Below, piece after piece: positions 16,031-16,474 of a DNA stretch of 64,000 bases. The notes beneath the pieces are model-generated. The model saw nothing but the letters and a program-made list of their open reading frames with translations, ran no database searches and was not told the origin of the DNA. Every line of letters starts with the position of its first letter. Position 1 is the first letter of the stretch. A program made the translations under genes and the position numbers. The DNA is taken from the NCBI RefSeq assembly GCF_013122565.1, contig NZ_CP053258.1. One strand, written 5' to 3'. This DNA comes from Escherichia coli (GTDB lineage Bacteria; Pseudomonadota; Gammaproteobacteria; Enterobacterales; Enterobacteriaceae).

Positions 16031-16474
16031 TTAGCTTTTAGCAGGCTGAAAACTGGTCAACCATGCAGTCCATAGCTGGTCGGTGTGCTCATCAAAAGGA
16101 CGCTGACTGGTCAGCGTCAACACCAGAACCTTTGCTGGCCCGGTGATAAACCCGGCCTGACGCTGGTACACTTCTGTTTTTCCAGAACGATGAGTTGCGA
16201 GAATCTGTTCACCTGTCATGGCAGCTTCGCCCGTTCCCGCCAGTGCCGTTCCCCGCGAAAGTACCCGGTGCTGGCCCAGGTTTTTTTTCATCAAGGCTAT
16301 CTGGCGGTCAATATAGGTGGTCAGATTTTCATCTGGCCTGAGCGTATCGCGGGAAATATTCAGACTGGGAGTTGCCCTTTCATTGCCCGACGGGACGAAG
16401 ATATTGACGGTGCGATCAAGAAAAGTTTCAGGCAGGGCAAAGCAGCCCTCCTGAATACGGTAAAGGCTGGTCAT
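16031..16474 (-). CDS. eagR: EagR-type effector chaperone (DUF1795)
   Basis: 147 aa ORF directly upstream of the prePAAR Rhs, the usual position of Eag chaperones. Confidence 0.75.

Follow-up and report, generated by a model that had tools for sequence, protein, structure and literature searches.

A gene of 147 codons lies between vgrG and a full-length rhs gene in a T6SS island of Escherichia coli, and the question that this locus raises is whether its product is a chaperone for the neighboring Rhs effector or a protein of another kind that is encoded there by coincidence. We addressed this question in a stretch of 64,000 nucleotides (RefSeq assembly GCF_013122565.1, contig NZ_CP053258.1), hereafter the window, which is a segment of the E. 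coli chromosome with fadE-ivy-yafV at its left end. We consider it very probable that the gene encodes a cytoplasmic Eag chaperone, the E. coli ortholog of SciW (EagR), that is co-transcribed with vgrG and a class I prePAAR rhs gene and shields the N-terminus of the Rhs protein. The features of the locus and its surroundings are listed in Table 1.

Table 1. Features of the vgrG-eagR-rhs locus and its surroundings, by position in the window.
Feature	Coordinates	Strand	Basis
Four orphan rhs-CT/immunity cassettes without prePAAR/PAAR N-terminus	2730..11312	minus	ORFs, family matches
Orphan cassette: LHH toxin and SUKH protein	3170..4297 and 2730..3179	minus	
Orphan cassette: toxin with weak DUF7587 match and 101-aa ORF with no family match	4699..6315 and 4377..4682	minus	
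Orphan cassette: GIY-YIG toxin and LRR protein	7360..8820 and 6489..7340	minus	
Orphan cassette: Tox-SHH toxin and SUKH immunity protein	9474..11312 and 8976..9464	minus	
Candidate immunity gene, 119 aa; start overlaps rhs stop by 7 nt	11518..11877	minus	Position only
rhs, full-length class I prePAAR effector, 1379 aa	11871..16010	minus	Pfam, NCBIfam, PDB cage matches
C-terminal toxin of Rhs (aa 1252-1379), deaminase-fold, HAE...CxxC	11874..12257	minus	Deam_C, E = 1.7e-16
PAAR domain of Rhs (aa 72-138), predicted VgrG-tip binding cone	15597..15797	minus	PF05488, E = 1.2e-15
rhs codons 1-59: ten-residue prePAAR motif and TM-helix region, predicted EagR-binding segment	15834..16010	minus	6xrr_J
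eagR/sciW ortholog, Eag (DUF1795/DcrB-fold) chaperone, 147 aa	16031..16474	minus	ORF, PF08786, PDB SciW
vgrG, spike, 737 aa, Salmonella VgrS ortholog	16498..18711	minus	TIGR03361, E = 2e-166
T6SS core and accessory genes, all intact	23256..45501		NCBIfam; Pfam for ImpE
tRNA-Asp (aspV), island boundary	45631..45707	minus	ARAGORN and Rfam

The eagR gene and its product

The original prediction placed a 147-aa gene at positions 16031-16474 and left the strand unstated. An intact ORF, with an ATG start, 147 codons, and a stop, occupies exactly this interval on the minus strand and is preceded by a Shine-Dalgarno sequence (AAGGA, 8 nt ahead of the ATG). The product had been described as DUF1795-like, a likeness that a profile search confirmed: residues 9-141 align with the full profile of Pfam family PF08786 (DcrB, formerly DUF1795; positions 1-127 of 127; E = 2.4e-35), and the score of 121.9 bits, against a curated cut-off of 27.2, is far beyond chance. 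A search of the NCBIfam models with the EagR protein returned no match, so the naming rests on Pfam and the PDB, and the E. coli orthologs are called only "DcrB-related protein" in RefSeq; both of these observations were counted against the explanation that we favor.

In the PDB, SciW (6xrr_E, 6xrb, and 9mvg) matches EagR at E values of about 3e-69, with 74.8% identity over residues 4-146, and EagT6 (1tu1 and 6xrf) is a more distant match (E about 8e-7). Structures exist of SciW by itself (6XRB), of its complex with the Rhs1 N-terminus (6XRR), and of an L66A variant (9MVG), and roles have been assigned to individual residues of the complex (PMC7773334; PMC12881460). In SciW, I25 packs hydrophobically on the client, S41, Q58, and Q106 form bifurcated hydrogen bonds with the client helix backbone, L66 makes a knob-in-hole contact, and G108 backs pockets for Rhs1 F20 and F43, which leads to class I specificity; residues A24, L44, L47, and I56 of Rhs1 are also named as chaperone contacts (PMC7773334; PMC12881460). 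EagR carries all six of these published SciW contact residues at the same positions. Across eight EagR homologs, with identities down to 67%, I25, S41, Q58, L66, and Q106 are invariant, and G108 is kept in seven of the eight and replaced by Ala in one.

The name of the matching Pfam family, DcrB, and the RefSeq annotation of the E. coli orthologs would also suit a protein that is strictly a DcrB-type exported periplasmic lipoprotein, with no role as an Rhs chaperone and only incidentally adjacent to rhs. E. coli DcrB does share PF08786 with EagR, but DcrB is an exported lipoprotein, whereas EagR has no signal sequence and is encoded in a T6SS effector operon. When the EagR N-terminus was checked for an export signal by hydropathy, no hydrophobic segment, signal peptide, or lipobox was found (Kyte-Doolittle mean of 0.38 for the first 19 residues and −0.18 for the first 11), and the top 19-residue window reaches only 0.76. 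EagR is predicted from its sequence to be cytoplasmic, and the protein to which it is 75% identical, SciW, is itself cytoplasmic. Together with the gene linkage described below, these features make the lipoprotein reading extremely improbable in our estimation.

The adjacent Rhs effector and VgrG spike

The Rhs gene had been said to lie immediately downstream of eagR and to encode an N-terminus with a prePAAR motif, hydrophobic helices, and a PAAR domain, and each of these elements was recovered. The rhs start lies 20 nt after eagR and is preceded by a Shine-Dalgarno sequence (GGGAGG). The first 13 residues of Rhs fit the pattern AARxxDxxxH through A4, A5, R6, D9, and H13, and prePAAR_I matches residues 1-53 (E = 8.1e-24). 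The Pfam domains follow in the order prePAAR_I, PAAR_motif, DUF6531, seven RHS repeats, the RHS core, and a C-terminal Deam_C; NCBIfam models identify YD repeats and Rhs_assc_core (residues 1184-1251). With its 1379 residues, Rhs also falls within the length range of class I effectors (about 1200 aa or more). The PAAR domain matches the PAAR structures 4jiw and 4jiv, and the Rhs core matches the cage structures 7q97 (Pseudomonas protegens RhsA) and 7pq5. Between the motif and the PAAR domain lies a single continuous hydrophobic block, residues about 14-57, in which the 19-residue Kyte-Doolittle windows centered on residues 20-52 exceed 1.6. After the PAAR domain there is one isolated, moderately hydrophobic 19-residue window (center at residue 177, Kyte-Doolittle value 1.85); judged by hydropathy, this window falls outside the class I definition, though the Pfam class I model fits the Rhs N-terminus.

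Residues 2-59 of Rhs are identical to the crystallized Rhs1 peptide (6xrr_J) at 53 of 58 positions (91%). The five differences, at residues 33, 35, 40, 50, and 52, are all conservative, and F20, A24, F43, L44, L47, and I56 are all kept. The original prediction had assigned the effector to a chaperone-dependent, membrane-anchored class. Dependence on a chaperone is well supported by SciW orthology and by the client peptide, but the term "membrane-anchored" differs from the published model, in which the chaperone keeps the TM helices out of the producer membrane and insertion is thought to take place in the membrane of the target cell (PMC7773334).

It could be asked whether EagR instead serves another or an additional client, such as a TMD-bearing effector encoded elsewhere in the genome. 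Eag proteins do have class-specific clients (PMC7773334), and our view of this genome spans 64 kb. However, the N-terminus of the adjacent Rhs is nearly that of the demonstrated SciW client, its F20 and F43 fit the G108-backed pockets (PMC7773334), no further prePAAR ORF was noticed within the window, and the four orphan rhs genes have no such N-terminus. We give this possibility hardly any weight and regard the adjacent Rhs as the probable client of EagR.

VgrG, which had likewise been predicted to be adjacent, is the first gene in the order vgrG-eagR-rhs, its stop lying 23 nt before eagR. The protein contains the Pfam domains Phage_GPD, Phage_base_V, and Gp5_trimer_C and shares about 89% identity with VgrS (PDB 9mlp; 1361 bits over residues 90-732), to which its C-terminal spike region is nearly identical. 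VgrS is the spike that is loaded with the PAAR-containing Rhs1, with an Eag chaperone assisting (bioRxiv 10.1101/2024.12.20.629533). A promoter and terminator scan of 11300..24200 gave a site count not above that of shuffled sequence and placed no site in either gap flanking eagR, a result that lends weak support to the predicted co-transcription of vgrG, eagR, and rhs.

The linkage extends beyond this genome. In all four diverged homologs that we looked up in their contigs (from Pseudenterobacter, Enterobacter, and two Salmonella; 67-74% identity to EagR), a prePAAR_I-PAAR-Rhs gene (1374-1387 aa) comes next after the Eag gene, no more than about 20 nt away, and a VgrG was called directly upstream in two of the four. 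Such retention of the neighboring prePAAR Rhs in diverged relatives is a further argument against an incidental adjacency of a DcrB-type lipoprotein. The Rhs N-termini of these relatives are conserved at 84-90%, which is higher than the conservation of the chaperones. Within E. coli, a sensitive blastn search found eagR DNA in 20 of 5426 complete genomes; in all 10 of the E. coli genomes listed among these 20 carriers, VgrG, "DcrB-related protein," and RHS annotations occur together.

Several observations concern VgrG and its surroundings in their own right. Codons 1-110 of vgrG encode an Ala/Gly-rich N-terminal extension ahead of the gp27-like domain (the Pfam GPD match begins at residue 126). 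A second, truncated vgrG (20033..20794, minus strand) encodes only the first 253 aa and bears the same extension, and alignment to the crystal chain of VgrS begins only at VgrG residue 90. The two copies belong to a 1039-bp repeat (17939..18977 and 20022..21060; 90.6% identical) that comprises the vgrG 5′ end and upstream sequence, and this degree of divergence suggests that the cassette was gained by recombination rather than by recent duplication. A duplicated candidate metallopeptidase effector pair accompanies the truncated copy. The truncated vgrG is absent from E. coli LHM10-1, but the annotations of several other E. coli genomes show this layout. One protein of 214 aa, encoded at the Pseudenterobacter locus, was considered as a relative of the HExxH proteins; it proved not to be homologous and was removed from the alignment.

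Toxin cassettes and the T6SS island

The C-terminal domain of Rhs belongs to a polymorphic toxin family whose members are attached to a wide range of carriers (217 representative clusters at E ≤ 0.001). H45, A46, E47, and C77 do not vary across 42 homologs of the domain, and C74 hardly does. A sequence search of the domain against the PDB gave no match at E ≤ 10. An AF2 model of the domain has a pLDDT of 92.7, and its Foldseek matches in the PDB are weak (E ≥ 9e-3, TM about 0.5) and all to deaminases, including DYW domains, a plant cytidine deaminase, DddB, and T4 dCMP deaminase. The toxin had been suspected, from its HAE...CGFC motif and C-terminal tail, to be a DddA homolog; this was dropped, as Foldseek gives only a distant deaminase fold, and the DddA chain 6u08 matches only the conserved end of the Rhs core (residues 1223-1256) and not the toxin. 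The candidate immunity protein encoded after rhs had no match in Pfam or NCBIfam.

Beyond this gene lie the four orphan cassettes, whose cores are 92-97% identical in DNA to positions 12255..13871 of the main rhs gene, so that recombination could swap their toxins onto the EagR-dependent N-terminus. Recombination of orphan toxins has been reported in Salmonella (PMC3967940), and the cassettes here are the substrate for such events. In LHM10-1, the same Rhs body carries a different toxin. It is possible, although we hold this only as a tentative and rather unlikely proposal, that VgrG, EagR, and the prePAAR-TMD-PAAR-cage portion of Rhs constitute a fixed launcher that can be re-armed from the four orphan cassettes and whose present payload represents a deaminase clade that lacks a close solved relative. 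Should this payload prove to target DNA with a previously unseen preference for sequence or strand, it would rank as a new mutagenic toxin acting between bacteria and possibly as a base-editing enzyme. We also observed an ORF for a SymE-like type I toxin (8618..8914, plus strand; SymE_toxin, E = 1.2e-7) that lies in antisense orientation at the 5′ end of the second orphan rhs; SymE_toxin genes also occur after the Rhs region in three related loci.

The whole locus is part of a T6SS island that spans about 43 kb between yafV and tRNA-Asp, beyond which come dnaQ (45840..46580) and, farther along, an rRNA operon. Both the left end of the window and the island align collinearly with the genome of E. 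coli LHM10-1 (97-98% identity). The layout matches that of SPI-6 with its variable regions VR1 to VR3 (PMC10469887); in islands of this type, the variable regions hold Tae4/Tai4, Tge2/Tgi2, and Rhs. The region 23256..45501 carries tagF, tssM, tssL, tssK, tssJ, hcp, tae4/tai4-like genes, tssC, tssB, clpV, tagK, impE/tagJ, tssE, tssF, tssG, and tssA, and all 13 of the T6SS core genes are present at full length in the window (tssA, tssB, tssC, hcp, tssE, tssF, tssG, clpV, vgrG, tssJ, tssK, tssL, and tssM), the TssA match of 148 bits lying under the curated cut-off of that model (160.85).

Two further gene pairs in the island are typical of SPI-6. One encodes a glucosaminidase-domain protein (156 aa) and a T6SS_Tgi2PP immunity protein (153 aa) at 22312..23228 on the minus strand. 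The other is an effector/immunity pair of BPSL0067-family and STY0301-family proteins (32832..33670, minus strand), which is presumably the Tae4/Tai4-like pair. A 94-nt tRNA-His that ARAGORN called within tssF (43235..43328, plus strand) was not confirmed by Rfam and is most likely a false positive.

The state of the island bears on whether the module, although intact, might be silent or dispensable in this strain, as an unexpressed remnant of an island gained by horizontal transfer. That so few E. coli carry the island is compatible with such a state, as is the promoter signal at chance level in the scan described above. In the closest relative, LHM10-1, tssL (31087..32403 of its locus) is marked in the annotation as a pseudogene interrupted by a stop codon, which indicates that the island is decaying in at least one lineage; the tssL in the window is intact (438 aa). 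Moreover, the orthologous system in Salmonella SPI-6 needs induction by bile salts, and deletion of sciW there reduces T6SS-dependent killing only to an intermediate degree (PMC12881460). Such a moderate phenotype is expected when other effectors remain, but it means that the phenotype of eagR may be modest as well. Against a silent module, full-length ORFs are found for the 13 core genes, for vgrG, eagR, and rhs, and for the toxins and immunity proteins, the Eag contact residues are unchanged, and the toxin cassettes are diverse and ready for recombination, which suggests ongoing selection. We therefore consider a silent module improbable.

Proposed mechanism and relation to known systems

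From the ortholog SciW, we infer that EagR dimerizes, binds and stabilizes its client, assists its loading onto VgrG, and is needed for delivery. In the mechanism that we propose, an EagR dimer would form a claw that grips the hydrophobic N-terminal stretch of Rhs (some 45 residues, about 14-57), with helix packing met by the Leu66 knob, by hydrogen bonds from Ser41, Gln58, and Gln106, and by the Gly108-backed pocket for Phe20 and Phe43. The segment would thereby be kept soluble and out of the inner membrane of the producer, and the effector would be stabilized. The prePAAR motif would complete the split PAAR domain, which would then cap the tip of the adjacent VgrG trimer, and the loaded spike would be fired by the intact T6SS of the same island. 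Once the chaperone is released, the freed helices may enter the target membrane and allow the deaminase-fold toxin to pass into the prey cytoplasm, and sibling cells would be protected by the product of the small gene downstream of rhs, the candidate immunity gene.

The locus most resembles the SciW-Rhs1-VgrS system of Salmonella Typhimurium SPI-6 (PMC7773334; PMC12881460). The order vgrG-eag-rhs and the position in an island at tRNA-Asp are shared, the identities are 74.8% for EagR, 91% for Rhs residues 2-59, and about 89% for VgrG, and all of the published contacts are kept. By contrast, the host here is E. coli, and the toxin has a deaminase fold, unlike the toxins studied in Salmonella. 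In addition, one orphan rhs has been described in Salmonella Typhimurium (PMC7043789), compared with the four orphan cassettes here. EagR1-RhsA of P. protegens and EagR-Rhs of Serratia marcescens are also class I prePAAR Rhs systems in which an adjacent DUF1795 chaperone is needed for stability and T6SS delivery (PMC7773334; PMC8765631; PMC4524185). They share the prePAAR motif, one TMD region, PAAR, Rhs cage, and toxin with the present locus but are more distant in sequence.

EagT6-Tse6 of Pseudomonas aeruginosa (1TU1, 6XRF) shares the fold family and the principle of TM-helix shielding; Tse6, however, is a class II client, a small effector with two TMD regions and pseudosymmetric binding, and EagT6 has a Phe where SciW and EagR have Gly108 (PMC7773334). 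In E. coli itself, vgrGO1-eagR-rhs loci have been reviewed (PMC6730261), in which delivery of PAAR-Rhs-CT toxins reportedly requires both eagR/DUF1795 and the upstream vgrG, and the present locus belongs to this class. The DNA of these loci is too diverged to be matched by blastn with the eagR of the window, and only the 20 island-bearing genomes were matched.

Overall, the locus is an ortholog of a solved and published system and is already familiar both in type and in its particulars; its distinguishing features are its host, the scarcity of the island among E. coli, and the combination of toxins that it carries. Sequence alone advances no open question on Eag chaperones, and the value of the finding lies mainly in annotation, as the RefSeq name "DcrB-related protein" hides SciW/EagR chaperones of prePAAR Rhs effectors. 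It also means that a few E. coli (20 of 5426 complete genomes) have a complete, apparently functional SPI-6-type T6SS at aspV, and that the E. coli island carries an Eag-Rhs launcher together with five alternative toxins.
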